From Alphaproteobacteria bacterium (lineage in GTDB: Bacteria; Pseudomonadota; Alphaproteobacteria; UBA8366), in assembly GCA_049601975.1 (NCBI GenBank), contig JBMYRC010000005.1:6494-70493 (forward strand): a stretch of 64,000 nt of DNA, given 5' to 3'. The notes beneath the pieces are model-generated. The model did not search any database and was not told the DNA's origin. It saw nothing but the letters and a program-made list of their open reading frames with translations. Below are positions 2,113 to 64,000 of this stretch, in pieces. The number at the start of each line of letters is the position of its first letter. Within the stretch, counting starts at the first letter, position 1. The translations under genes were made by a program, and so were the position numbers.

Positions 2113-2242
2113 CGCTTCCATCCCTTCCACACCAAATGCATATCGTCGTGTCGATCCTCCTATTGACCTAGGCAGCATCCCCTAGAGGACGAGAGGATAA
2201 ACGCGTTGACACACCTTCGAGCCGGCTATAGTGAAGATGTAA

Positions 2243-2300
2243 CGTGGTGATTTGGCCCGACCGGCTTGCGGCCACGTAAAAAAATTGGCTAAAAGGTCGG
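2243..2300 (+). promoter_or_regulatory. SAM-II-class riboswitch candidate in the metZ leader
   Basis: CGUGGUGAUUUGGCCCGACCGGCUUGCGGCCACGUAAAAAAAUUGGCUAAAAGGUCGG. P1 pairs CGUGG (2243-2247) with CCACG (2272-2276). It has the U-rich 5' loop, GGCUUGC, A-run and GCUAAAA blocks I recall from SAM-II (metA/metZ leaders of alphaproteobacteria). Loop CCGACC (2257-2262) can pair with GGUCGG (2295-2300) as a pseudoknot. The location upstream of a methionine-biosynthesis gene fits. Confidence 0.55.
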
Positions 2301-2315
2301 AGTGTTCGCAAAGAA

Positions 2316-2386: not shown

Positions 2387-3583
2387 ATGGACGGTTCACG
2401 CGATTTATATTCGAGCGACTGGCAACCCCAGACGACATTAGTACGCGGCGGTCTTCACCGCTCCCCCCATAAAGAAACCAGCGAAGCGCTCTACCTGACG
2501 TCGGGCTTCGTCTATGACACGGCGGAGGAAGCCGAGGCCGCGTTTAAGGGCGACCACAAGCGTTACATATACGGACGCTATGGCAATCCAACCGTTACTG
2601 CTTTTGAAGAACGACTGCGTCTCCTGGAAGGTGCCAAAGCCTGCAAAGGCACAGCGAGCGGCATGGCAGCCGTCCATGCGGCTCTTATTTGTCAGCTCCA
2701 AGCGGGCGATAAAGTCGTCGCTTCCCGAGCCCTCTTCGGCTCCTGCCATTATATTATCAACGAGCTGTTACCGCGCTTTGGTGTCGAGACACATCTTGTC
2801 GACGGTACAGATTACGACCAGTGGGAAGCGGCAATCGGCTCCAATGTCACGGTCACTTTTCTGGAAAGCCCTTCAAACCCCACTCTCGAAATTATCGATA
2901 TCGCACGCGTTGCAGAACTCACACACGCAGCGGGGGGCAAACTCGTCGTCGACAACGCCCTAGCGTCACCGGTGGTTCAAAAACCACTCTCACTTGGCGC
3001 CGACGTGGTTATCTACTCCGCGACAAAGCATATCGATGGGCAAGGCCGCAGTCTCGGTGGCGCGATTTTGGGGCCGACGGAAATCGTCGAAGAAAAATTA
3101 TCGAATATCATGCGACACACGGGACCGTCACTTAGCCCCTTCAACGCTTGGATTTTACTGAAGGGTTTGGAGACACTTGATCTCCGCGTGGAACGACATT
3201 CCCGGAACGCACATCAAGTGGCAGCGTTCCTGAACAATCATTCGAGTATCTCAAAGGCCCTCTACCCGGGCCTTGCCACCCATCCCGACTACGCCCTCGC
3301 GCAGAAACAGATGCGCGACGGCGGCACGGTCGTGACGTTTGAGTTGGACGGTGGCAAGGAAAAAGCATTCCAATTCCTGAACGCCCTTCAAATTGCCGAT
3401 ATCTCAAACAATCTCGGGGATTCGAAAAGTCTCGTCACACATCCTGCCACGACAACCCATCAGCGGCTCGAAGAAGAGGAACGCGACCGGCTCGGTATTA
3501 GTGGCGGGATGGTACGTCTTTCCGTTGGCCTCGAAGACCCAATCGACCTAATTAGTGATATCGAACAGGCACTCGACGCCTAA
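2387..3583 (+). CDS. metZ: O-succinylhomoserine sulfhydrylase (Cys/Met-metabolism PLP enzyme)
   Basis: 398 aa with an AGGAGG SD 6 nt upstream. TLVRGG, YGRYGNPT, ESPSNPTLEIIDI and SATKHIDGQGR (PLP-Lys) blocks are typical of MetZ / cystathionine gamma-synthase family. A SAM-II-like leader precedes it. Confidence 0.85.
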   Translation: MDGSRDLYSSDWQPQTTLVRGGLHRSPHKETSEALYLTSGFVYDTAEEAEAAFKGDHKRYIYGRYGNPTVTAFEERLRLLEGAKACKGTASGMAAVHAALICQLQAGDKVVASRALFGSCHYIINELLPRFGVETHLVDGTDYDQWEAAIGSNVTVTFLESPSNPTLEIIDIARVAELTHAAGGKLVVDNALASPVVQKPLSLGADVVIYSATKHIDGQGRSLGGAILGPTEIVEEKLSNIMRHTGPSLSPFNAWILLKGLETLDLRVERHSRNAHQVAAFLNNHSSISKALYPGLATHPDYALAQKQMRDGGTVVTFELDGGKEKAFQFLNALQIADISNNLGDSKSLVTHPATTTHQRLEEEERDRLGISGGMVRLSVGLEDPIDLISDIEQALDA

Positions 3584-6673: not shown

Positions 6674-6765
6674 CGGTCCAATAAAAAGCGCCTTGCAGCG
6701 CACTCATTGTTGCATCTGTAACATTTTGCGCTCATATGGGTGTCGACGACAATGGAGAATCTGAC

Positions 6766-8382
6766 ATGGCCTATGCACTGCCCGCCGCGAGCGACGGTGC
6801 GACCGGGCATCCCGCGACGCGTCGGCGGACCTTCGCCATCATCTCGCACCCGGATGCCGGTAAGACGACGCTCACCGAAAAACTGCTGCTATTCGGCGGC
6901 GCCATTCAGCTTGCCGGTGCAGTGAAAGCACGTGGAGACCGGCGACGCGCCCATTCCGATTGGATGAAAGTGGAGCGCGAACGGGGCATTTCGGTCACTG
7001 TTTCGGTCATGACCTTCGACTATGATGGCCTAACATTCAATTTGTTGGACACACCCGGACACGAAGACTTCAGCGAAGATACCTACCGCACCATAACGGC
7101 GGTCGACTCCGCCGTTATGGTGTTGGACGCGGCACGCGGTATCGAAAATCAGACACGGAAACTATTCGAGGTCTGCCGGTTACGCGATATGCCCATCGCC
7201 ACTTTTATTAATAAAATGGACCGCGAAGCTCAGGACCCGTTCGACCTTTTGGATGAAATCGAGCAAAGCCTGGCCTTGGACGTCACACCTGCCTCATGGC
7301 CGATCGGCATGGGACGGAATTTTCTTGGCTGTTACGATCTCCTCCGTGACCGCCTGCTGCTGACCCAACGCAGCAAAGGCAACACGATCGACAAAGGCAT
7401 CCCCTGCGAGGGGCTCGACGATCCGAAGCTCGACGAATTACTTCCCGCCGACGCTATCGCCAAATTGCGCGAAGATGTTGAGATGGTGCGAGGCCTCTGT
7501 CCCGAATTTGATCTGGACGCCTACCGAGAAGGTACATTGACCCCGGTTTATTTTGGCAGTGCGATCAACAATTTCGGGGTGCGGGAGTTGCTCGACGGTA
7601 TCGGTGCCTATGCGCCACCGCCACGCCCACAACCGACAGCCAGGCGTGAAATCATGCCAGAGGAAGACAAAGTCAGCGGTTTTGTTTTCAAAGTTCAAGC
7701 CAATATGGACGCGAAACACCGGGACCGAATTGCATTCGTGCGCTTGTGTTCAGGAAAGTTTAGACGCGGCATGAAGCTAAAACACATCCGCAGCGGCAAA
7801 ACGATGACCGCGCACAATCCGCTGCTATTCCTAGCGCAAGACCGTGAATTGGCGGAAGAAGCATGGCCCGGTGACATCATTGGCATTCCCAATCACGGCA
7901 ATCTTCGGATTGGCGATGCATTGACCGAGGGCGAAGATTTAGCGTTTACCGGCATCCCGAGCTTCGCACCCGAACTGATGCGGAAAGTGCGACCGGAAGA
8001 CCCGATGAAGGCAAAGCATCTAGGTCGTGCGTTATTGCAGATCGCAGAGGAAGGTGCTGCACGCGTCTTCAAACCGGTGATGGACCCGGACTGGATTGTC
8101 GGCGTCGTCGGCGCATTGCAATTCGAGGTGCTCGCCGACCGTATTCGCACGGAATACGACATACCGGTTCGCTTTGAGACAAGCTCCCTACATACCGCCC
8201 GTTGGCTGGATTGCAACGATGAGCGCGACATTAAAAAACTTCGCGATTCCGGTCCATCGGCAATGGCGGAGGATCACGACGGCGCGCCCATTTTCCTGGC
8301 CCGAAACGCGTGGCACTTGGAAACAGCTGAAAAAGAATGGCCGTCGATTAAGTTCCTGAAGACCAAGGAACAAACGACCTAA
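6766..8382 (+). CDS. prfC: peptide chain release factor 3
   Basis: RRRTFAIISHPDAGKTTLTEKLLLFGGAIQLAG..DWMKVERERGISV..LLDTPGHEDF..NKMDR are GTPase motifs colinear with RF3. ATG 6766 has a GGAG SD 8 nt upstream; ATG 6736 is the alternative. Confidence 0.93.
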   Translation: MAYALPAASDGATGHPATRRRTFAIISHPDAGKTTLTEKLLLFGGAIQLAGAVKARGDRRRAHSDWMKVERERGISVTVSVMTFDYDGLTFNLLDTPGHEDFSEDTYRTITAVDSAVMVLDAARGIENQTRKLFEVCRLRDMPIATFINKMDREAQDPFDLLDEIEQSLALDVTPASWPIGMGRNFLGCYDLLRDRLLLTQRSKGNTIDKGIPCEGLDDPKLDELLPADAIAKLREDVEMVRGLCPEFDLDAYREGTLTPVYFGSAINNFGVRELLDGIGAYAPPPRPQPTARREIMPEEDKVSGFVFKVQANMDAKHRDRIAFVRLCSGKFRRGMKLKHIRSGKTMTAHNPLLFLAQDRELAEEAWPGDIIGIPNHGNLRIGDALTEGEDLAFTGIPSFAPELMRKVRPEDPMKAKHLGRALLQIAEEGAARVFKPVMDPDWIVGVVGALQFEVLADRIRTEYDIPVRFETSSLHTARWLDCNDERDIKKLRDSGPSAMAEDHDGAPIFLARNAWHLETAEKEWPSIKFLKTKEQTT

Positions 8383-52836: not shown

Positions 52837-54213
52837 TTATTCCGCAGCGCGGTAATCTTCGTCCAGAACTTTCTCTCGCATCGTGACGAATTCTTCCGCC
52901 GACGTTGGATGGATGCCGATCGTCGAATCGAAGGTCGCCTTAGTCGCGCCCGCTTTGAGCGCGATGCCGATCCCTTGAATGATCTCTCCCGCTTCGGGGC
53001 CGACCATATGGACGCCAAGAACCACATCCGTCTCCGGGTGTACGATCATCTTCATCAGGGTCCGCTCGTCCCGGCCCGTTAACGTGTGTTTCAGGGCCTT
53101 GAAGTCGGACATATAGACATCGACCTTGCCATGCTTATCCCGCGCTTGCGCCTCGGTCATACCAACGGTCCCAATGCTCGGTTGGCTGAAGACAGCGGTT
53201 GGAATATTCGAATAATCGACCGCGCCCGCCTTGTCGTTGAAAAGAGCATTCGCGACAACCATCCCTTCCGCCAAGGCCACCGGCGTCAGTTGCACCCGGT
53301 CTATGACATCGCCGAGGGCGTAAATCGACGGCACAGAGGTTTTGAAACCTTCATCAACGACAACCGCACCGCCTTTGCCTAATTCAACTCCCGCTTCCTC
53401 TAGACCAATGCCGCTCGAATTCGGCGCTCTACCGGTTGCATAGAGGATGACGTCGGTCCGCATCTGGGTTCCGTCCTCAAAGTCGGCAATCAACTCATCG
53501 CCGTCTTTCTCAATCCGCGCGATATTCGCGTTGAACCGAAGATCCACCTTTTGTTTGCGCATCTCATCGGCGAGATGATGTCGCACGTCTTCGTCGAATC
53601 CGCGCAGAAAATGCGGCCCACGATAAAGCTGCGTCACGTCAACGCCCAATCCATGAAAAACACCGGTCAATTCGACCGCGATGTAACCGCCGCCGACGAC
53701 GATGGCCCGCTTTGGAAATTTCTCCATGTGGAAAAACTCGTTCGAAGTGATCGCATGTTCCTTGCCCGGGATATCGGGCACCACCGGCCAACCACCGGTC
53801 GCGACCAGGATATACTTTGCGGTTACCTGCTTGCCGTCGACTTCGACCGTGTGCGGATCGACGACAGTCGCGCGCGCATTAAAAATATCGACCCCAGCAT
53901 TGCCGAGCATATTCTCGTAAATGCCATTGAGGCGGGTGATTTCCTTGTCTTTGTTGTCGCGCAAGGTTGGCCAATCGAATGTCGTCTCACCGACCGTCCA
54001 GCCGTATGCTGCCGCGTCTTCGAAATCATGCGCAAAATGAGATGCATAGACGAAGAGCTTCTTTGGGATACAGCCGACATTGACGCAAGTTCCGCCCATA
54101 TAGCGGTCTTCCGCCGCCGCGACCTTTGCGCCGAAATTCGCCGCGAAACGGGCCGCGCGAACGCCTCCCGATCCAATCCCGATCACAAACATATCGTAGT
54201 CAAACTCGGCCAT
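52837..54213 (-). CDS. gor: glutathione-disulfide reductase
   Basis: 458 aa. [30 protein letters not shown] redox-active disulfide, and the C-terminal HPTSAEE motif. Confidence 0.9.
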
Positions 54214-54409: not shown

Positions 54410-54784
54410 TTAGTCGGTATTTCGCTCCTGCGACAACTCAATCGGCGCGCCGTGCGGTGTCGCCAAGTAAGCGCGTCGCCATTCCTCTTTGCGCCGCGCC
54501 ATATCGGACACGCCCAGCAATCCCTTACTTGCGACAAGCGTCTCCAACGCATTAAGCCAATGTCGATAATAGGTGTCACCGAGGTCTCGGTCGCCATCAG
54601 CCTGTGCACGATCTATTTCGGACGCCAGGGTCGCCGCCCACTCAACCCACGTGAACACACCTGCCTCGTTCAACCGTACCGCCATCGCAAAGGCATGCGC
54701 TTCCCACGGCTCTCTGAAGACCGGCTCGCTGCCATCGCGCGGCATTCCCGCGAAGAGGTTTAAATCGGGGCCACGAGCGCTCAT
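54410..54784 (-). CDS. nitrile hydratase accessory/activator protein
   Basis: ..EPVFREPWEAHAFAMAVRLNEAGVFTWVEWAATLASEI.. is beta-subunit-like, as in NHase activators. ATG 54784 forms a TGATG overlap with the nthB stop. Confidence 0.8.
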   Translation of the reverse strand: MSARGPDLNLFAGMPRDGSEPVFREPWEAHAFAMAVRLNEAGVFTWVEWAATLASEIDRAQADGDRDLGDTYYRHWLNALETLVASKGLLGVSDMARRKEEWRRAYLATPHGAPIELSQERNTD

Positions 54785-55443
54785 CACACCGACTCCAGAT
54801 GCGACTCCCACAAATCGACCCGCACCAGGTCCAGGGAATTACCGTTGGCGCCCCACAGCTCATCACCGCCGAATTGAACGCTATAGAGATGCTGTCCCTC
54901 TTTCGTGCCATGCGCGTTTTTATCCGCGAAAATGTGGACACCGTGATCGAATTCAACCGTCCCGGTCTTCCCCCGCGCATATCGCGGCGCACGAGTATGG
55001 CCGTCCGGATGGATATTCACGACACGGACACGGTCACCCGGACGAAACCGCGGCTCCAGCGGGATATCCAGGGTCGCCGGCCCGCCCTTGGTGAGCGCAG
55101 ATTCCACATTCTTCGCCGCTAAAATTCGCACGCCGTCGGTTTTACCGATCGGCGCTGCCGTGCGCAATTCTTCTTCACTCACAAGCCCGGCTTCGACGAG
55201 CAGCGTTTCCAATCCTGCCAGCCAGTTTTCGTAATATGTATTGCGAAGATAGTCGGCCGGATGCTGTCGCTCACGCGCGTGGCGTCCTTGATCGATATTC
55301 CATTTGCCGAGAAAGCCCGCCGCCAGATTAAGCGCGAAGGCCCGCCGTTCCCATTCTGCATGGAATACGGGCTCTTCATTCTCCGGCTCCGGATGGATGG
55401 CTCCGAGACCGTGCATACCGCCCAAATCATGACCGCCATTCAT
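54784..55443 (-). CDS. nthB: nitrile hydratase beta subunit
   Basis: [30 protein letters not shown].. is typical of NHase beta. TGATG overlap with nthA. Confidence 0.9.
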   Translation of the reverse strand: MNGGHDLGGMHGLGAIHPEPENEEPVFHAEWERRAFALNLAAGFLGKWNIDQGRHARERQHPADYLRNTYYENWLAGLETLLVEAGLVSEEELRTAAPIGKTDGVRILAAKNVESALTKGGPATLDIPLEPRFRPGDRVRVVNIHPDGHTRAPRYARGKTGTVEFDHGVHIFADKNAHGTKEGQHLYSVQFGGDELWGANGNSLDLVRVDLWESHLESV

Positions 55444-56072
55444 CAGCTTTCACCCGGCGCCGGCGGTGACACGATCTCAACACCAATCATCGAGTTGCGC
55501 GTCACCAAGGCCTCCAATCGATCCGCGGCCCAATCCTCCGTACCCTCCGGCCGTAGGGGCAACACAAGATAGCGCATCTCCGCGGTCGAGTCCCAAACGC
55601 GGACTTCCATATCTTCCGGCAACTCGGTCCCAAACTCCCGTAACACGCCGCGCGGGTCCGCCACGACACGGGAGCGGTAAGGCGCGGCTTTGTACCAAAC
55701 AGGGGGCAATCCCAACACCGGCCACGGATAGCAAGAACACAAGGTGCAAACGACCACGTTATGGAGCGACGGCGTGTTCTCTACCGTCATCATGTGCTCG
55801 CCTTGGCGGCCGGTGAAACCAAAAGACGCGATCGCTTCCGTCGCATCTTCCAGAAGCCAAGCCTTATAGTCGGGCTCGGTCCAAGCTTTGGCGACGACCT
55901 TCGCGCCGTTGCGCGGCCCGACCTTATGCTCGTAGGTATCGATTAAGACATCGAGAGCCGCCGGATCGACCAATCCTTTTTCGACCAAAAGCGATTCGAT
56001 TGCTTTGACCCGCAACTCAAGATCGCTGGGGGGGTCGGTATGATCGCGATCGTGATCGTATGAATGCCCCAT
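55443..56072 (-). CDS. nthA: nitrile hydratase alpha subunit, cobalt type
   Basis: 209 aa. The metal-binding claw [14 protein letters not shown] has the Thr/Tyr variant characteristic of Co-type NHase. Confidence 0.9.
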
Positions 56073-56081
56073 CCCTGCGTG

Positions 56082-57476
56082 CTACAATTCGTCGGAGCGC
56101 AGAACCATCATCTTCTCGATCTGCATTTCATGCATGGAGTAAGGAATGCCTCCAACACCGTGACCCGACTGCCGTGCGCCGGCGAACGGCATCCAATCGA
56201 CTCGGAAAGCCGTGTGCTCGTTGACCATTACCGCCGTCGCATCGATACGGTTATAGACACGCATCGCGGTGTCGATGTCCTTGGTCATGACCGCCGCCTG
56301 GAACGAGACGGGAAGCGAGTTCGCCTTCTCGATGGCGTCATCGATATCGTCATAAGAATAGACGCAAATGACCGGCCCAAAAATTTCCATCGTCGAAACG
56401 TTGGCGTCCTCCGGCGGGTTCAAGAGGACCGTCGGCTTGTAGCAGCTTTCCGATATCCGCTCACCGCCTGTCAAGCATTTCGCACCGCCTGCAATTGCCG
56501 CCTGCACCCATTCATCAACCCGGTCGACCTCAGCCGTACGAATCAACGGGCCCACTTCCGTGTCTCGGGATGTCGGATCGCCGACCTTCATCTTCGAACC
56601 CAGCTCAGCCAAGGTCACCGCTGCTTCCTCGGCGATCGAAGAGTGAGCGAAAATCCGTTGCACGGACACGCATACTTGACCGGCATGATAAAATCCGCCC
56701 TTGGCTAAACGCGGCAACGCATCGTCGAGATCGGCGTCCGCCGCCAATATCACCGGGGCCGCACCGCCGTGCTCAAGTGCGCAGCGCGTACCGGGCGCCA
56801 GTTTGGAGCGCAACATCCAACCGACACGCGCCGACCCAATGAAACTGAAAAAGGCATTTCGCGGATCGGACACCAACGCGGTCGCCACTTCTAAGTCCTG
56901 CGGCACCACGATCTGGCACCATTCTTTCGGCAGCCCGGCCTCGTATAGAATATTCACGAAAGCAAAGCAGGAGAGCGGCGTAATGTCCGCTGGTTTGACG
57001 ATGACGGGGCAGCCGACCGCAATGGCCGGCGTGACCTGATGAACGATCAAATTAAACGGATGATTGAAAGCGCTGACAGCTACTACCGGCCCGATTGGCT
57101 CAAATTGTGTAAACGCAATACGTCCGGTCGACGACGGGTTTAGGCTCATCGGAATGACCCGCCCCCCTTCCGCCCGCAACACCTCGACGCAATTCTCAAC
57201 GCCGTCTGCCGCCCGGTCAATTTCGACCAGTGAATCCATCAACGGCTTGCCGCCCTCACGCGCGGCTTCCAGCGCCAATTCCTCGCGGCGCTCCTTGATG
57301 ATCTCCGCGGCTCGTTTCAAAATTTCGATGCGTCGGGGTTTCGATAGCCAGCCGTCGCGGTCGCGATAGAGCGCATGCGCCTTCGCCAGAGCATTCTCGA
57401 CATCTTGCTGCGTTGCATTCGGCACAGATGAGATATCTGAACCGTCGAAAGGCGCTGTCACAGAAATATTAGTCAT
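56082..57476 (-). CDS. NAD(P)-dependent aldehyde dehydrogenase
   Basis: 464 aa. The EHGG (ALEHGGAAP) and GQVCVSVQR catalytic Glu/Cys regions fit the ALDH family. Confidence 0.85.
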   Translation of the reverse strand: MTNISVTAPFDGSDISSVPNATQQDVENALAKAHALYRDRDGWLSKPRRIEILKRAAEIIKERREELALEAAREGGKPLMDSLVEIDRAADGVENCVEVLRAEGGRVIPMSLNPSSTGRIAFTQFEPIGPVVAVSAFNHPFNLIVHQVTPAIAVGCPVIVKPADITPLSCFAFVNILYEAGLPKEWCQIVVPQDLEVATALVSDPRNAFFSFIGSARVGWMLRSKLAPGTRCALEHGGAAPVILAADADLDDALPRLAKGGFYHAGQVCVSVQRIFAHSSIAEEAAVTLAELGSKMKVGDPTSRDTEVGPLIRTAEVDRVDEWVQAAIAGGAKCLTGGERISESCYKPTVLLNPPEDANVSTMEIFGPVICVYSYDDIDDAIEKANSLPVSFQAAVMTKDIDTAMRVYNRIDATAVMVNEHTAFRVDWMPFAGARQSGHGVGGIPYSMHEMQIEKMMVLRSDEL

Positions 57477-57574: not shown

Positions 57575-57973
57575 TTGCCAATCGCGGAATTACGAATTGC
57601 AGACCCGTCGACCGGAAATGGGACAAGCGCATTGAGTGACGAGACACCTCCAAAGGCAAAACCGTGGTTGCGTGCCTGCGTGAATTTCCGTGCGGGCAAC
57701 CGGCTGACGTCTTGCGGAGCCAAGAGAAGCCGAGAGATGGTCGCCGCCCTGGAGGCCGGCATCGCTTCACGCGGTCTTTCCTGGCAAATCGAGAAGGTAC
57801 ATTGCATGGGCAAATGTCATCTCGGGCCGACCATGCGCATTCTGCCCAATGGATCCTTCATCGTGGGCGCACGGGAGGCCGACGTCCCTCGAATACTCGA
57901 CTTGCTGGAGAACAACGACCTGAACGGTCTCGCGAACACCTATCCTCTACCACCTCAGGACCCCAATGGCTGA
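57575..57973 (+). CDS. thioredoxin-like [2Fe-2S] ferredoxin-domain protein
   Basis: Cys pattern ..ACVNFRAGNRLTSCGAK..VHCMGKCHLGP.. The start is uncertain (TTG 57575, or TTG near 57668). Confidence 0.6.
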   Translation: MPIAELRIADPSTGNGTSALSDETPPKAKPWLRACVNFRAGNRLTSCGAKRSREMVAALEAGIASRGLSWQIEKVHCMGKCHLGPTMRILPNGSFIVGAREADVPRILDLLENNDLNGLANTYPLPPQDPNG

Positions 57974-58685
57974 TCCCATTTGCCTCGATACCTTTGAAGG
58001 CGCATCAGTCCTCCTTCGGAGAACGAATCGCAAGAAATCGATCTCCCTCTCAATTCGAGATGGCGGCATCGTGATCTTAGCCCCAAAGCGGGTTACGGAT
58101 CGTGAAGTATACGATCTCATGGTTAAAAAGGCTCCATGGATTCTTTCCAAGTTGGCTAAACAAGCGACGTTACCGCATATCGCCGAACGGAAATTCATAG
58201 ACGGCGACATATTTTTATTTCTTGGCGAAGCATATCCGCTGCGCGTCATGGACGGCCCCAAAGCCAAAGCGGAACTCGAAGAAGGGGTGTTCATAGTCCA
58301 AGCCCGACGCGCCCATATTCAAGAGCGTCGCGCGCGGAGTGTTCGTGCGGCATTTTTACGTTGGTACAAAGAAGAAGCGGAAACCCTATTCACGGACCGG
58401 ACGAGTTACTACGCCGATCGGATGGGGGCTGCGCCGGGGCGCATCTTGTTCCGCGACTACAAAAGCATGTGGGGCAAATGCACGGTCCAGAGAGAGATTA
58501 CCTATAACTGGAAACTGGTAATGGCACCGCCACGAATCGTCGACTATGTGATCGTCCACGAATTAGCGCATCTGCATCATTTAAATCATTCGCGGGATTT
58601 TTGGAATTGTGTGGAGAAAGTGATCCCCGACCACAAGGCCCGGCGCAAATGGCTGAAGGATCACGGCCAAACTCTGACGATTTAG
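57966..58685 (+). CDS. YgjP/DUF45-family (M48-like) metal-dependent hydrolase
   Basis: 239 aa. WGKCTVQREITYNWKL and VIVHELAHLHHLNHSRDFW are hallmarks of the YgjP family. Confidence 0.85.
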   Translation: MADPICLDTFEGASVLLRRTNRKKSISLSIRDGGIVILAPKRVTDREVYDLMVKKAPWILSKLAKQATLPHIAERKFIDGDIFLFLGEAYPLRVMDGPKAKAELEEGVFIVQARRAHIQERRARSVRAAFLRWYKEEAETLFTDRTSYYADRMGAAPGRILFRDYKSMWGKCTVQREITYNWKLVMAPPRIVDYVIVHELAHLHHLNHSRDFWNCVEKVIPDHKARRKWLKDHGQTLTI

Positions 58686-58870
58686 TTCGACGTCAGATCA
58701 GGTAACCCATGGCCTGTTTCGATGAGATTCGATCCAACCCCAATCCAAAGTCATCATTCTCTCCAGATAAATAATAAAATTCGAGAAACGCCAGATATTG
58801 TCTGCGGGTCGCTGGTGGAAGGAAGCGAATCGGGTTAAACATTAGGCTTCGCAAAAAGGGAGATTTAACC

Positions 58871-59317
58871 ATGGTCAATGTTGGTGATCAGGCCCCTGCC
58901 TTCAGCATACCGAACCAATCGGGCGACGCTATTTCGCTCGACAATCTTTCGGGTAAATACGTTTTGATCTGGTGGTATCCGAAAGCCGATACCCCCGGTT
59001 GAACCATCGAAGGCAACGGGTTCCGTGATAGAATCCAAGATTTCGAGAGTAAGAACGCGGTGATTCTCGGCTGTAGTATGGACAGCCCCGAGGATAACCG
59101 CGCGTTTAAGGAAAAATTCGATTTTCCTTATGACTTGTTAAGCGACACGGACAAATCGATGTCCATCGCTTACGGCGCCGCCGAAGCGGATTCGCCACGA
59201 CCGGCCCGTATCTCGGTCCTTGTCGGGCCGGACGGCAAAGTCGCGGCAGTGTATCCAAAAGTGACCCCGGCCGATCATCCGGACGAGGTCTTGGCGACGC
59301 TGAATAGCCTCGGCTAA
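58871..59317 (+). CDS. bcp: Bcp-type peroxiredoxin with in-frame TGA at the peroxidatic Cys position (candidate selenoprotein; alternatively a nonsense pseudogene)
   Basis: GGGAG SD, then ATG 58871. MVNVGDQAPAFSIPNQSGDAISLDNLSGKYVLIWWYPKADTPG-TGA(59000-59002)-TIEGNGFRDRIQDFESKNAVILGCSMDSPEDNRAFKEKFDFPYDLLSD.. is colinear with E. coli Bcp (YFYPKAMTPGCT..). The frame is open on both sides of the TGA. Confidence 0.7.
59007..59046 (+). promoter_or_regulatory. SECIS-like stem-loop 4 nt downstream of the bcp TGA
   Basis: Lower stem 59007-59012 pairs with 59041-59046 (UCGAAG/UUUCGA, 1 G-U). Upper stem 59018-59023 pairs with 59031-59036 (GGGUUC/GAAUCC, 1 G-U). The apical loop CGUGAUA begins 24 nt from the UGA. 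Confidence 0.45.
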
Positions 59318-59328
59318 GAGTGTATCAA

Positions 59329-59357
59329 CCGGGTCGCGGAAGCGACCCGGTTTTTTT
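59329..59357 (+). terminator. rho-independent terminator after bcp
   Basis: CCGGGUCGC-GGAA-GCGACCCGG is a 9-bp GC-rich stem followed by UUUUUUU, 12 nt after the bcp stop. Confidence 0.85.
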
Positions 59358-59403: not shown

Positions 59404-60333
59404 CTAGGACAGATAATCCGCCAGGGCGCTATGTGTTGCCTCGCGGGATTTTTTATCGTGCGTCACAACCTGAATCCGCAAATCTGTGGCACCCGCCTTC
59501 GCGTATTCCGCCAGTCCATCGAGAACTTGCTGCCAGCTGCCAATCAAGTGCAGGTCCGACGCATCATCAAGACCTTCATGCTTGGTGGCCTCGGTATAGG
59601 ATGGGATGGCCTGATAATGTGCGGATATCTCTCGTGCGAGGGCTTTTGCTCCTGCAAAATCATCGGTGACGCAGACCCGCACCAACGCCATGACGCGCGG
59701 TTTAGTATCACGATTGACGCTCTCAGCACCCGCTTGAAGGTGTGGCAGAATATAAGTCGATATGGTCCGAGGTCCGCATTGACCGAGAGTCGTTCCCTGC
59801 AACCGGCTACCGGCAAAGCGCAACATTAGCGGACCGAGTGCTGCCAATAAGATCGGTGTTCCTTTTGCTTCGATTGCGAGCTCTGCATGTGCGGAAATCT
59901 GCTCGCCGTCCGTATCCGCCGGCTCACCGCCGAGCAACGGCTCCAACGCCGCCAAGAACTCTCGCGTGTAGGAGAATGGTTTGTCCCACTTTAGGCCAAG
60001 CACCCCTTCGACATGGCGCCTGGAAGCAGTTCCAACACCAAGGGTAAAGCGCCCCTCCAAGGCGCTCTGAGCGGTCCGCACCAGCTGGCCGAGGCCAACC
60101 GGATGACGGCCATATAGTGGCACGACCGATGTGCCCATTTCTGCAAGGCCCGGAAAATCACCGCCGATGCACGCTAGCGCCACAACGGGATCGATTCCCG
60201 TTGCGTGGGAGATCCACAAACTGTCGAAACTCGCATTTTCGGCAAATTTAGCAGCGTTGCGCGCATCCTCAATTGATGCAAGCGCCGAGCCCCCAGCATA
60301 GCCCCAATGAATCCCAAAGCGGTCGTTCGCCAT
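59404..60333 (-). CDS. LLM-class (luciferase-like) flavin/F420-dependent oxidoreductase
   Basis: MANDRFGIHWGY..FDSLWISHATGIDP.. and the overall TIM-barrel LLM pattern. ATG 60333 was used (the ORF runs to 60414). Confidence 0.75.
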   Translation of the reverse strand: MANDRFGIHWGYAGGSALASIEDARNAAKFAENASFDSLWISHATGIDPVVALACIGGDFPGLAEMGTSVVPLYGRHPVGLGQLVRTAQSALEGRFTLGVGTASRRHVEGVLGLKWDKPFSYTREFLAALEPLLGGEPADTDGEQISAHAELAIEAKGTPILLAALGPLMLRFAGSRLQGTTLGQCGPRTISTYILPHLQAGAESVNRDTKPRVMALVRVCVTDDFAGAKALAREISAHYQAIPSYTEATKHEGLDDASDLHLIGSWQQVLDGLAEYAKAGATDLRIQVVTHDKKSREATHSALADYLS

Positions 60334-60433
60334 TGATCTGTCCCCTACCGTTAAGCCGGACGGTCCATCTTGAAACCTTTGGAAATTATTCCAACGTGAC
60401 GGACTTTTTTCCAAAGGATGGGTCTGTCACGAT

Positions 60434-61283
60434 CTAAACTCCTGTCTTCAGAGTTTTTTTTGATCCATCGTGCTTGGATACGAAAGACCCTAGCAGACTT
60501 TGGGTGATATTTCCCTCGATTAGATCATAGCCCATCGACTTCATGGATACATCCCGATAATCCAATGAATCCCCAACAATGGGATATTTGAAAATGATAT
60601 CAATAACATGCTCATGCGTATCAGGATCAAGGTACACCGTTAGTCGATCCACTACCCTTTCGAGGTAGTCTTTGCGATCCTCTGGTGATATGTGGTCAAC
60701 GTCATCATACATCTCATTAAACTTGCCGACCCAATCTATCCACCGTTTCTGATTAACTGTTTCTTGGATGTGTAACTTAATCTGTTCCAAGTCACCCTTT
60801 GCAGAATCCAATTTATTCCAAAGGTTCTTCTTTACCGGGCGATATAGTTTTTCATCCATGCGTTCTAGCAAACAGTCTGTCTCGATCTTTGCGATGGATT
60901 CTTCAATTCGTTGGATGCCGGTCTTAATCCTTTCTCTACCTTCCTTTGATTTCTGATATCCGACTTATATTCTAACTTAGCGTGATCCTTATTTTTTAGG
61001 AGTTCCGTCTTCACACGCTTCTTGAGGATACTAGATTTTGACACGGTGGATTTCACACGTTCCCAAACCGCAGAGTCGGTCGCAGGGATATTAAGCGATT
61101 TGCGCATCGAACATCCTCGACCCCTCACCCATTTTTAACGTCCCTCGGTTGATCTTTGACCCAAGTCCGTTCTCTCTCTGGACAGTAATAGTAGTGTTGA
61201 CACACCTTTTTGTTGGTCCGACCACCAATCAGCCTACCGCAATCGCCTCACACCATGAGGTCATGGAGTGTAAGCTGCAGTTA
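60434..61283 (-). pseudogene. large serine recombinase remnant (zinc-ribbon and coiled-coil C-terminal part only; frameshifts, a nonsense codon, and 5' truncation)
   Basis: ..LHDLMV-TGA(61248-61250)-GDCGRLIGGRTNKKVCQHYYYCPERERTW.. is the recombinase zinc ribbon. There is a frame change near 61125 to ..CSMRKSLNIPATDSAVWERV.., then another near 60955 to the coiled coil ..YQKSKEGRERIKTGIQRIEESIAKIETD..LERMDEKL.. (ORF 60434..60871). No catalytic N-terminal domain is present. Confidence 0.7.
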
Positions 61284-61718
61284 CTCGTGGAACGCCATTT
61301 CCTTCGGAGTACATCAGACCCAAATTGTACTTGGCATTGGCAAACCCCTGTTCAGCAGCAAGTTTGTAATACTTCACCGCAGTCTTATGGTTGTTCGGAA
61401 CACCTTGTCCAAAGCAGTAAATCTCTCCAAGATTGTACTGCGCATTGGCATTAACCTTTTTGGCAGCAAGTCTATACCACTTTGCGGCAGTCCTTTGGTT
61501 CCTCATAACCCCCTTTTTCCGCTTTCGTACACTACACCCAGTTCGTTTTGGGCAGAGGCATCCCCATGTTCCGCATGAGGTTTCCATTCACGCAGAGCAG
61601 TTGCCTAATCACCACTATCGTATGCGGTTAGACCCTTTTGGAAATCAGACCCTCTCACCTCAGCGGTGCAAAGAAGCATGGCAAGGGTCAGGCAGATGAT
61701 GTCAGGTAGAGTTCTCAT
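61261..61718 (-). pseudogene. secreted Sel1-repeat protein with in-frame TAG and a homopolymer frameshift
   Basis: ATG 61718 reads MRTLPDIICLTLAMLLCTAEVRGSDFQKGLTAYDSGD-TAG(61605-61607)-ATALREWKPHAEHGDASAQNELGVVYESGK. A frameshift in the C5T5 run 61509-61518 leads to ..GVMRNQRTAAKWYRLAAKKVNANAQYNLGEIY..KYYKLAAEQGFANAKYNLGLMY.. (ORF 61261..61587). Confidence 0.75.
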
Positions 61719-61727
61719 ATAAATGAG

Positions 61728-61760
61728 TTTAGTGGATTTTGAGTGTGTGGGTAGAGAACC
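61728..61760. repeat. copy A of a conserved ~33-bp intergenic motif
   Basis: TTTAGTGGATTTTGAGTGTGTGGGTAGAGAACC. On the minus strand it starts 5 nt after the stop of ORF 61766..62047. Confidence 0.85.
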
Positions 61761-61765
61761 AGACA

Positions 61766-62047
61766 CTATTCAACCTTACTGACTACAAACCCAGATGCAC
61801 CCTTACCCTTCGACCGTTTGATAATGTATCCCTTGCTGCCCAAACGGAATGCGTTGTCATGCACCAACGAGGATAGGGCAACTTTGATTTTCTCAGCAAC
61901 AGGATCAATCTGAACCGTGTTCTCTTTGGTCTGCGTCTTCATCCATTTTGCGAATGCATTATCTGCGATTTCATTTCCCAGACTTTTACGAAGAGCGTTT
62001 AATTTACGGGTTTGACCTTTCGTTAGAGTATTTTCGTTGATTACCAT
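61766..62047 (-). CDS. hypothetical protein (93 aa)
   Basis: Intact ORF MVINENTLTKGQTRKLNALRKSLGNEIADNAFAKWMK..; lysine-rich. I recognise no family. Confidence 0.5.
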   Translation of the reverse strand: MVINENTLTKGQTRKLNALRKSLGNEIADNAFAKWMKTQTKENTVQIDPVAEKIKVALSSLVHDNAFRLGSKGYIIKRSKGKGASGFVVSKVE

Positions 62048-62293
62048 GATCTTTGATAAACCTTTTGTTTGTTATTTAGGAGATTTGAGATGCGGTTATA
62101 TACAAGCGAGCACTGCATGGATAGACCCATCGAATATTGTTATTGGGATGAAGTGTATAGATAATTATCCGTCATCCTCTGAAACCCTATCCTTCCTCTT
62201 TAAGGTTTGATTTATGCTCAGTTCAGGCATATCGGCGGTTCTGGTCTTATCTTGATTAAGATGGCAGGTGGGTTTTAAAACCGAGGTCTTTAG

Positions 62294-62470
62294 ATGGGCG
62301 GATTTGGTCTCTTAGATTATATCGTATTATTAATGGCAGTTTGTCCAGCAATGGGCGTTTTCAGAAGTGTAAAGAACGGTTCCATATTACACGCACTCTT
62401 ATCCGTTGTTATCCCTTTGTATGGAATCTTCTACTTCTTCCTAGGGAAGAAAAAGCAAGGTGTGACTTAA
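62294..62470 (+). CDS. possible small membrane protein (58 aa)
   Basis: GAGG SD 7 nt upstream of ATG 62294. MGGFGLLDYIVLLMAVCPAMGVFRSVKNGSILHALLSVVIPLYGIFYFFLGKKKQGVT has two hydrophobic helices and a basic tail. Below the ORF-track length cut-off. Confidence 0.35.
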   Translation: MGGFGLLDYIVLLMAVCPAMGVFRSVKNGSILHALLSVVIPLYGIFYFFLGKKKQGVT

Positions 62471-62471
62471 A

Positions 62472-62505
62472 TTTAGTAAAATTTGAGTGCGTGGGTAGAG
62501 GAACC
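62472..62505. repeat. copy B of the conserved ~33-bp intergenic motif
   Basis: TTTAGTAAAATTTGAGTGCGTGGGTAGAGGAACC matches copy A at 29 of 34 aligned positions. On the minus strand it starts 2-3 nt after a TGA (62508-62510) that ends an open frame ..KELAQIAKNQTVMVICNP. Confidence 0.85.
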
Positions 62506-62507
62506 CA

Positions 62508-62720
62508 TCAAGGATTACAGATCACCATCACGGTTTGGTTCTTCGCAATCTGTGCGAGTTCCTTGGTGTATTTCCGTTCAGTCCGACTAGACCATTTGGT
62601 GGGTAATCCAACGGAGTTCAGAAACTGTCTGACCGTGGATGCTTTGATTCCAAAGTTCGCATTCTCTGGAAGTGGCCCGATTGCTTCTGCGACTTTGAGT
62701 TTATTAAGTAGGGATATGAC
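62508..62720 (-). pseudogene. start-less C-terminal gene fragment (unknown family)
   Basis: The minus-strand frame is open for more than 90 codons (..RRIVISLLNKLKVAEAIGPLPENANFGIKASTVRQFLNSVGLPTKWSSRTERKYTKELAQIAKNQTVMVICNP*) but has no ATG/GTG/TTG near its 5' end. Confidence 0.3.
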
Positions 62721-62813
62721 TATCCGTCGTCGGGGGTTTTGGAACAGAAGGCTGTGATCGCGAAGGAGATGGGGATAAGACGAGCGAGTGTCTATCGGGC
62801 ATTACAGGTATGA
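62712..62813 (+). pseudogene. resolvase/invertase C-terminal HTH fragment
   Basis: ..GVLEQKAVIAKEMGIRRASVYRALQV* is the typical HTH_7 tail of small serine recombinases. There is a stop codon immediately upstream (62709-62711) and no catalytic domain in any + frame. Confidence 0.55.
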
Positions 62814-63397
62814 AACCCCTTACTCATCCATCCGTTCTCTATTCTCGTTCAGCGGTTCTATCCAACACTTCACCAGTTCCCACCGAACGAGGTTTGTATG
62901 CGTGGTTTTTCAAGGAAATCCCCGGCATCACTCCAACAGACGGATGTATAACCAAAGACAACTTCATTCTTCTTTATGTCGGCATTTCACCGAAGAACGA
63001 TACGAGTAAAGGAAATCTTCGCAAACGGATTACCTACCACTATAAGGGCAACGCAGAAGGCTCCACTTTACGTCAAACCCTTGGAGTTCTCCTAACGGAT
63101 AAGAGTGATTATCCCTTGCGACGAGTAGGCAGCGGAAAAAGAATGACCTTCACTCATATTGGCGAACGATGGTTAGATGATTGGATGCAAGAAAATGCGT
63201 TTGTTTGTTGGGTGAAACATCCAGCACCTTGGGAAGTGGAAAAAGAAGTGATTGAGAGTTTATCCCTTCCTCTCAACATCCAAGACAATAAGCATCATCC
63301 GTTCAGCAGAACTTTGAGTGATATGCGGCAAAAGGCGAAGCGGATTGCGAGGGATACCCCAGTAGCGAATGAAGGAAACCAGCAGGGACAGATGTAG
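62810..63397 (+). CDS. GIY-YIG-type nuclease family protein
   Basis: 195 aa. ERGLYAWFF..ILLYVGISPKN..LRKRITYHYKGNAEGSTLRQTLGVLL..WEVEKEVIESLSLPLNIQDNKHHPF follows the GIY-(N)-YVG, Arg, Glu pattern. ATGA overlap with the resolvase fragment stop. Confidence 0.7.
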   Translation: MKPLTHPSVLYSRSAVLSNTSPVPTERGLYAWFFKEIPGITPTDGCITKDNFILLYVGISPKNDTSKGNLRKRITYHYKGNAEGSTLRQTLGVLLTDKSDYPLRRVGSGKRMTFTHIGERWLDDWMQENAFVCWVKHPAPWEVEKEVIESLSLPLNIQDNKHHPFSRTLSDMRQKAKRIARDTPVANEGNQQGQM

Positions 63398-63568
63398 GTA
63401 AGCAAATGGGTCGTAGAGATTTCCTAAGTCAACACCCTTTGTATTTCTTACGGACACATTCACGGGCAAGACTCTGTTCCTCTGCGATTTGTGCAGGAGT
63501 TATTATCTTCTCAAACAATATTCGGCAACCTGGCACCCGTCTTGTCTAAATTGGTAAAAGCACGATTT

Positions 63569-63949
63569 TTACCAAAACCTCCACCATCCATAAAACGCCC
63601 AAAATTTCCACCATGGCGTTATTGCATTGATAAGGCTTTGAGCGCCAGGGCTTCCCTGTTCGGCGGCAAGTTTTTCATAGTACCTCGCTTTACGGAGGTC
63701 TTCCTTAACGCCCCATCCTTGGAGGGTTCCCCTGTAATTTCCCGCAAGTTTCCAAGAAGCAATATGATCTCCATTTCCAGAGGCTTGATCTAGCAATTTC
63801 AAGGCTTCTTCATAGTTACCTTTTCTAGCTTCTGAAGAAGCTAAATTTCTCTGTGTGATTCCTTTTTCTAAATCAGCACTCTCGCCCACCCCCGCACTTC
63901 CGATAAGGATGATGAGGGTCAGGCAAAATGGGACTAATAATTTTTTCAT
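63569..63949 (-). CDS. secreted Sel1-repeat protein (126 aa) with Trp-rich tail
   Basis: Signal peptide MKKLLVPFCLTLIILIGSAGVGES. Sel1-like ..GDHIASWKLAGNYRGTLQGWGVKEDLRKARYYEKLAAEQGSPGAQ.. The unusual C-terminus is TPWWKFWAFYGWWRFW. Confidence 0.65.
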   Translation of the reverse strand: MKKLLVPFCLTLIILIGSAGVGESADLEKGITQRNLASSEARKGNYEEALKLLDQASGNGDHIASWKLAGNYRGTLQGWGVKEDLRKARYYEKLAAEQGSPGAQSLINAITPWWKFWAFYGWWRFW

Positions 63950-63952
63950 AGT

Positions 63953-64000
63953 TCAAGTCCTTCCAAGAAGCAGGGCAATCGTCAGGCAGAGTGTGGCGGT
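63953..64000 (-). pseudogene. fragment resembling another Sel1-paralogue signal peptide, ending in TGA 4 nt before the next gene
   Basis: ..TATLCLTIALLLGRT* resembles the signal peptides MRTLPDIICLTLAMLL and MKKLLVPFCLTLIILI of the two neighbouring Sel1 genes. It is cut by the window edge. Confidence 0.3.

Follow-up and report, generated by a model that had tools for sequence, protein, structure and literature searches.

Selenocysteine-containing peroxiredoxins have been catalogued in ocean bacteria since 2005, when 43 genes for the selenoprotein 'Peroxiredoxin (Prx), COG1225, TxxU' were reported from the Sargasso Sea (Zhang, Fomenko & Gladyshev 2005, PMC1088965). A survey published in 2006 listed 12 such genes in sequenced bacteria and inferred five events of conversion from cysteine (Cys) to selenocysteine (Sec, U) within the family (Zhang et al., PMC1794560), and 253 Prx TxxU genes were found in the Global Ocean Sampling (GOS) data (Zhang & Gladyshev 2008, PMC2398784). 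Here we describe a gene of this kind in a stretch of 64,000 nucleotides from an alphaproteobacterial genome (contig JBMYRC010000005.1), referred to below as the window. The gene, prx, occupies positions 58871-59317 of the window and is crossed by a single in-frame TGA. It belongs to the selenoprotein family already catalogued in ocean bacteria, and is an instance of genuine recoding and not a new one. COG1225 is the group that we take to comprise the Bcp-type peroxiredoxins. The internal 'stop' is almost certainly a programmed Sec codon accompanied by an RNA signal, the selenocysteine insertion sequence (SECIS), and it is very probable that the locus represents one intact, monocistronic gene for a Sec-containing peroxiredoxin of the BCP/PrxQ subfamily.

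A comparison of the window gene with the marine Prx (TxxU; COG1225/PF00578) reveals no substantive difference between the two. They share the same domain, the PxxxTxxU motif with Sec at the same position, and a bacterial-type SECIS directly after the UGA, and the relatives of the window gene are largely marine; the gene is a further member of this family, from an alphaproteobacterial genome fragment. The likeness is seen at the level of sequence in the entry JCVI_READ_560720 (...LLWWYPKADTPGUTIEGNGFRDRIQDF...), listed under '#Peroxiredoxin' in the GOS supplement. Over 127 amino acids this entry and the window protein share 65% identity, and the stretch of 25 residues around the Sec (WWYPKADTPGUTIEGNGFRDRIQDF) is the same in both. 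The motif ADTPGUT is found in 34 entries of the same supplement.

Two further groups of selenoproteins bear comparison with the window protein. PrxU of Eubacterium (Peptoclostridium) acidaminophilum (NF040737) likewise combines the peroxiredoxin fold with Sec at the peroxidatic position and a bacterial SECIS, but it represents another Prx subfamily and has about 233 amino acids by the length of its model, against 148 in the window protein. A preliminary description of this locus, made from the DNA sequence alone, had cited PrxU as a relative; this does not stand, as NF040737 demands 270 bits for membership and gives the window protein 36.2; the family to which the protein should be likened is 'Prx, TxxU, COG1225', the BCP-type selenoproteins of marine metagenomes. 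The Prx-like 1, 2 and 3 proteins of the GOS data, which abound in the same marine samples (PMC2398784), are also thioredoxin-fold redox selenoproteins; they carry a thioredoxin-like UxxC motif, whereas the window protein has the true peroxiredoxin TxxU.

Protein family and active site of the window peroxiredoxin

The reading frame opens at ATG 58871, with a Shine-Dalgarno sequence upstream, closes at TAA 59315-59317, and has TGA 59000-59002 as its sole interruption. The TGA is flanked by KYVLIWWYPKADTPG and TIEGNGFRDRIQDF, in a frame that reads WWYPKADTPG, stop, TIEGNGFRD. Both the start signals and the placement of the only stop on the Cys of the PxxxTxxC motif had been read in this way in the preliminary description, and are confirmed. 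With Cys put in place of the TGA, the 148-residue product matches the Pfam family AhpC-TSA (PF00578) with an E-value of 9.1e-31, residues 4-126 aligning with positions 1-123 of the 124-position profile. Its residues 2-146 run in parallel with positions 4-154 of the 156 in PRK09437, the NCBIfam model of the E. coli Bcp type, a colinearity that bears out the end-to-end correspondence with E. coli Bcp proposed earlier. The NCBIfam scores (Bcp PRK09437, 107.7 bits; PrxQ, 91.2; PrxU, 36.2; AhpC, 28; Tpx, 27) and the PDB matches identify BCP/PrxQ as the closest subfamily, ahead of AhpC/Prx1, Prx6, Tpx and Prx5; the best PDB match is the Bcp structure 3drn (1e-24), and the top 13 are all BCP, BCP-like or Dot5 proteins. 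The score against PRK09437 lies below the equivalog cutoff of 140, which sets the protein apart from E. coli Bcp orthologues, in a distinct clade of the subfamily.

The active site consists of P37-x3-T41-x2-U44 together with R113, and in an alignment of 32 sequences P37, T41 and R113 are invariant. The window protein is thus colinear with the Cys thiol peroxidases of the E. coli Bcp/PrxQ type (PDB 3drn, 5enu, 5iph and others) and has the same Pro, Thr and Arg; it differs from them in having Sec for the peroxidatic Cys and no resolving Cys at +5. The residue at U+5 is Asn (UTIEGN), and the resolving Cys that is common, though not universal, among BCPs is absent. Only five of 75 relatives with TGA at the Sec position have Cys at U+5, and the homologue alignment contains no invariant Cys elsewhere in the protein. 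A 1-Cys-type variant occurs within the BCP subfamily. With no Cys at +5 and none conserved elsewhere, the window protein would work as a 1-Sec peroxiredoxin, as the preliminary description had supposed from the missing resolving residue.

Table 1. Features of the prx locus, and the release factor gene discussed in the text, in window coordinates.
Feature	Position	Strand	Basis
Shine-Dalgarno sequence GGGAG	58858-58862	+	8 nt upstream of ATG 58871, read from sequence
Peroxiredoxin coding sequence, 148 codons, BCP/PrxQ-type	58871-59317	+	Sec (U) at codon 44; translation; Pfam, NCBIfam and PDB matches
UGA, probable Sec codon in place of the peroxidatic Cys	59000-59002	+	TGA at the homologous codon in GTDB relatives; U in the GOS selenoprotein set
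SECIS hairpin within the coding sequence	59007-59046	+	Minimum free energy and centroid fold; pairing conservation; synonymous-site collapse; published criteria
Intrinsic terminator, 11-bp stem (8 GC pairs), GGAA loop, then T-run	59327-59357	+	
Peptide chain release factor RF3 (GTP_EFTU + RF3_C)	6736-8382	+	Sole SelB-like tblastn match of the window

Conservation of the UGA codon and its treatment in databases

We fetched the DNA of the 80 most similar homologues among the GTDB species-representative genomes. The codon at the Sec position is TGA in 75 of them, TGC or TGT in four and unresolved in one, and the genomes span at least ten phyla. By genome label, the TGA carriers include Rhodospirillaceae and other Alphaproteobacteria; the gammaproteobacterial Woeseiaceae, Thioalkalivibrio sp. 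HK1 and Immundisolibacterales; and Gemmatimonadetes (Gemmatimonadota), Latescibacterota, Phycisphaerae, SAR324, Myxococcota, Acidobacteriota, Acidimicrobiales, Krumholzibacteriia and Binatia. In nearly all of these relatives the frame stays open over 43 codons or more leading up to the TGA and over a further 101-110 codons beyond it, and amino-acid identity is 50-73% on either side. Proteins of the Cys form (such as P0002, P0012 and P0070) are 55-67% identical, and the distribution of TGA and Cys codons is that of a classic Sec/Cys pair. In the metagenome-assembled genome (MAG) that provides locus L064 only 72 codons are open after the TGA, and the gene there may be frameshifted or a true pseudogene; in locus L033 we failed to find the active-site motif.

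This distribution bears directly on the possibility that prx is a pseudogene, in which the TGC or TGT codon of a non-functional bcp has decayed to TGA beside a degraded mobile element; decay of TGC or TGT to TGA had been raised as an alternative in the preliminary description. The change from TGY to TGA requires a single base, and the fragmented, frame-shifted open reading frames (ORFs) at 60434-61228 in the adjacent low-GC region highlight the fact that decay does occur nearby. The presence of the same TGA in open frames, in so many of the closest homologues and across different species and phyla, cannot be explained by independent nonsense decay, and refutes this alternative. Amino-acid conservation in the homologue alignment is alike before and after the TGA, and the RNA downstream of it shows synonymous constraint and compensatory base pairs, as described below. 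The Shine-Dalgarno sequence and the terminator are intact; the terminator, previously placed at 59329-59357, is the same element as our stem-loop at 59327-59352 with the T-run that follows. The first 60 kb of the window are densely filled with intact ORFs. Decay of a Cys codon is, on this evidence, very unlikely. The 'dead recombinase' cited earlier in support of it stands in part: three-frame translation displays frame-shifted fragments, while Pfam searches of 60434-60871 and 60865-61128 gave no hit that would name the ancestral gene.

Genes of this family are mishandled in public databases in three ways: by splitting the locus into proteins of 43 and 85 amino acids, by truncation with an invented start after the TGA, and by translation of the TGA as Trp under genetic code 4. 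The first of these corresponds to a true stop at 59000, which would yield a 43-residue peptide and a separate C-terminal protein of 85 residues starting at GTG 59060. Gene callers do divide the locus in this manner (L001), and the cluster of the 85-residue fragment, P0069, has 59 members. Neither fragment, however, has a complete thioredoxin fold or active site, as T41 and R113 are separated and codons 44-63 fall in neither product; furthermore, no part of the gene is more strongly conserved, in protein or in nucleotide sequence, than the stretch from the TGA to GTG 59060. Other pipelines pick different artificial starts, which marks these products as annotation artefacts: a few truncated database entries begin with 'MEG[NK]GFRD' directly after the Sec position, and the 'MEGNGF' starts of P0116 and P0119 presumably arise from an ATT or ATC Ile codon. 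We regard a true stop at this codon as scarcely credible.

The third treatment makes the closest database relatives look like enzymes with an impossible catalytic Trp. Our protein search returned about 70 full-length homologues (among P0001-P0074), with 55-73% identity, that show W at the catalytic position (ADTPGWTIEG), while more distant ones carry C. That the closest database proteins have W here could be taken to mean that UGA is decoded as Trp, or else as Gly or Cys, by way of a variant code, a suppressor tRNA or misinsertion of Cys through the Sec pathway. The W is a gene-calling artefact: P0025, a 'W' protein with 127 member sequences, is identical over 90 amino acids to locus L032 (L032:5244), whose DNA reads TGA, and the database W is thus a TGA translated under genetic code 4 by metagenome gene callers. 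TGG is found at the Sec position in none of the 79 GTDB loci with a readable codon. Within the window TGA terminates 13 of the 44 ORFs of at least 250 codons and is thus an ordinary stop codon in the source genome; translation in the host phyla follows the standard bacterial code, which also counts against reassignment. An enzyme with Trp or Gly as its peroxidatic residue would be dead, yet the Pro, Thr and Arg of the active site stay invariant, and reassignment of the code would need no dedicated conserved hairpin. Decoding of this UGA as a residue other than Sec is for these reasons extremely improbable.

Structure, constraint and possible remodelling of the SECIS hairpin

The mRNA following the UGA can form a hairpin with a lower stem at 59007-59012/59041-59046, an upper stem at 59018-59023/59031-59036 and the apical loop CGUGAUA at 59024-59030. 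This is exactly the minimum free energy (MFE) and centroid structure, at -12.5 kcal/mol for the 56 nt from the UGA, so that the two stems and the loop drawn in the preliminary description are reproduced without change. Published criteria for bacterial SECIS (bSECIS) elements specify a loop of 3-9 nt, an upper stem of 4-16 bp, a G in the first two loop positions, a distance from UGA to loop of 16-37 nt and an MFE of at most -7.5 kcal/mol (PMC13188914). The window hairpin has a 7-nt loop, a 6-bp upper stem, G and then U at loop positions 2 and 3, and a UGA-to-apical-loop spacing of 21 nt, and these values, like its MFE, lie within all of the published limits. All 70 of the TGA forms tested fold at -7.5 kcal/mol or below, and the Cys forms L055 and L056 are without an equivalent hairpin.

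Support for the structure was taken from explicit pair counting with controls. The pairing of the window structure is preserved in 86.4% of cells over all 69 distinct aligned TGA sequences and in 91.8% over the 56 sequences of the window's subtype, compared with at most 60% in slid controls, and none of 500 shuffles attains the observed percentage of pairs or the observed covariation score. In the subtype the upper stem is 97.9% paired and nearly invariant. Compensatory changes are found in the lower stem, where pair 12-49 occurs as CG (19 sequences), UA (15) and GC (3), and pair 11-50 as UA (36) and CG (3). Pair 12-49 couples the third position of codon +2 with the first position of codon +15, at which Glu, Asn, Ser and Gln alternate, and no protein-level reason for this coupling is apparent from the alignment. 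With these comparative data the hairpin is far beyond chance.

The coding sequence bears the imprint of the same element. When 57 sequences of the window's subtype are aligned by codon without gaps, synonymous-codon entropy collapses over codons +3 to +11, coinciding with the hairpin. The frozen codons are Glu GAA (51/57), Gly GGC (49/57), Gly GGG (48/57), Phe TTC (57/57), Arg CGT (53/57), Asp GAT (51/57) and Ile ATC (54/54), while the Pro, Thr, Pro and Gly residues of the upstream motif, which are equally invariant as amino acids, keep 1.5-1.8 bits of codon entropy. Such a collapse is the hallmark of an RNA element that lies within coding sequence. The relatives of the window gene therefore carry TGA together with a conserved, covarying hairpin, as the Sec assignment of the preliminary description required; that assignment is upheld by the homologous TGA codons, the compensatory changes, the frozen synonymous sites and the agreement with the published bSECIS values.

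A number of results weigh against the interpretation of this UGA as a Sec codon. Taken as a single sequence, the window hairpin reaches only z = -1.84, and 11 of 200 dinucleotide shuffles fold as well, so that the single sequence is unable to decide between Sec and decay. The upper stem, being nearly invariant, supports the structure through conservation and not through covariation, and the conserved peptide GFRDRI also constrains part of its sequence. RNAalifold, in place of which the pair counts were used, finds no consensus structure in the mixed alignment of 69 sequences and, in the subgroup of 56, recovers no more than a portion of the upper stem, and no Rfam family matches the hairpin at either gathering thresholds or a permissive E-value. 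There is no tRNA-Sec gene in the 64-kb window, which has no tRNA gene at all, and tblastn with E. coli queries detected no homologue of SelA, SelB or SelD in the window and 1.33 Mb of relatives' flanks, where the matches were generic GTPases or marginal.

Further searches for the Sec machinery gave a similar picture. Among the loci of 60 relatives no tRNA-Sec was detected, the only tRNA found being tRNA-Ala(CGC), in five of them; Pfam searches of the size-compatible ORFs of the window yielded no SelA, SelB or SelD, and no sel gene lies within 10 kb of the prx gene in any relative. The check for selA, selB, selC and selD that the preliminary description had proposed for the complete genome was run for the source organism within the 64-kb window, where none was found, and their absence from this window is uninformative about the whole genome. 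In Alphaproteobacteria selC, the gene for tRNA-Sec, has been reported to be embedded in selB (PMC13188914). The SelB-like match at 6832-7272 is the GTPase domain of release factor RF3 (Table 1), and not SelB. A scan of the window for further TGA-interrupted ORFs returned 115 mechanical candidates, none of which besides prx has a protein-like redox-motif context; no second selenoprotein was thus found in the window as proof of Sec use. Sec competence of the source organism is suggested by the intact, conserved UGA and its SECIS.

The relatives display a second type of hairpin at the same site. It has the form GGUYGCG[GGUUC]CGCGAC, with the loop in brackets, in 13 TGA forms, mostly from Acidobacteriota, Binatia and Myxococcota (loci L067-L083; alignment columns 16-34). 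The marine form, GGGUUC[CGUGAUM]GAAUCC, stands over the covarying lower stem. Both forms share the core GGGUUCCG, and the nucleotides of the upper stem of the marine form are those of the loop of the Acidobacteriota/soil form. Three of the five TGA forms with Cys at U+5 carry the soil-type hairpin. The existence of two SECIS architectures on one core would mean that the SECIS had been rebuilt around a UGA that was kept, and the fact that the Sec form outnumbers the Cys form in this clade, over at least ten phyla, suggests that the gene spread together with its SECIS. We offer this history of remodelling, Sec dominance and joint spread as a tentative proposal, and one that is rather more likely to need revision than to hold. 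An Acidobacteriota homologue with TGC at the Sec position (L080:5115-5170) keeps most of the soil-type hairpin (GCUGCGGGUUUCGCGAC; MFE -15.5), and may represent a recent Sec-to-Cys conversion.

Model of activity, genomic setting and significance

The conserved UGA, hairpin and active site suggest a model for the synthesis and activity of the window peroxiredoxin. We propose that the hairpin in the mRNA acts as a bacterial SECIS and would be bound by SelB·GTP·Sec-tRNA(Sec); the complex would deliver Sec to the UGA in competition with release factor 2, giving rise to the full-length enzyme of 148 residues. Sec44 would stand where the Cys enzymes have their peroxidatic Cys, within the P-x3-T-x2-U / Arg113 active site, and would reduce H2O2 or organic hydroperoxides by way of a selenenic acid intermediate. 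As a 1-Sec enzyme, the protein would be recycled directly by an external thiol reductant, such as thioredoxin, glutaredoxin or glutathione. A pyridine-nucleotide disulfide oxidoreductase with a dimerisation domain, of the glutathione-reductase/lipoamide-dehydrogenase type, is encoded at 52837-54213 (-), about 5 kb upstream of prx, and might be part of the thiol recycling for the 1-Sec peroxiredoxin.

The prx gene is neighboured by genes for the beta and alpha subunits of nitrile hydratase, an aldehyde dehydrogenase and a YgjP-like metal hydrolase (54784-57476 (-) and 57966-58685 (+)), and on its other side by a luciferase-like monooxygenase (59404-60414 (-)); the same order of neighbours is seen in the metagenome contigs L001 and L002. 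Exact matches to the protein of the neighbouring gene came solely from metagenome contigs no longer than 6.7 kb. From about 60400 to 64000 the window has a low-GC tail, with a GC content of 0.44-0.48 compared with about 0.55 elsewhere, which encodes Sel1-repeat proteins (61261-61587 and 63569-63949) and a GIY-YIG_2 protein (62810-63397). This tail begins about 1.1 kb downstream of prx, just past the luciferase-like gene, and has the look of an island of mobile or foreign DNA in decay. Far from prx, a SAM_alpha riboswitch (Rfam RF00521, 69.8 bits) at 2234-2312 (+) is positioned directly upstream of the ORF at 2387-3583 (+), which encodes a pyridoxal-phosphate enzyme of Cys/Met metabolism (PF01053, E 4e-130); the riboswitch identifies the source as an alphaproteobacterium. 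The tRNA-Ala(CGC) genes of the five relatives mentioned above (L037:10704-10779, L039:10629-10704, L018, L044 and L048) lie downstream of the Sec-prx gene on the opposite strand, within about 200-300 nt of it in two of the five.

The window gene opens no new biological question. It provides a genome-anchored example, complete with Shine-Dalgarno sequence, SECIS, terminator and 64 kb of context, for a family whose known members come mostly from short metagenomic reads, and it highlights the fact that an unaided reading of raw sequence is able to tell a recoded UGA from a nonsense mutation. Mildly new with respect to the published family are the two SECIS architectures, the breadth of the family in MAGs of at least ten phyla, and the systematic misannotation of its members in databases. 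The presence of two architectures on one core and the dominance of the Sec form were not found stated in the papers cited above. The 1-Sec BCP without a resolving Cys may use a distinctive reductant, and the presence of its gene marks the alphaproteobacterial host as a probable selenium user.

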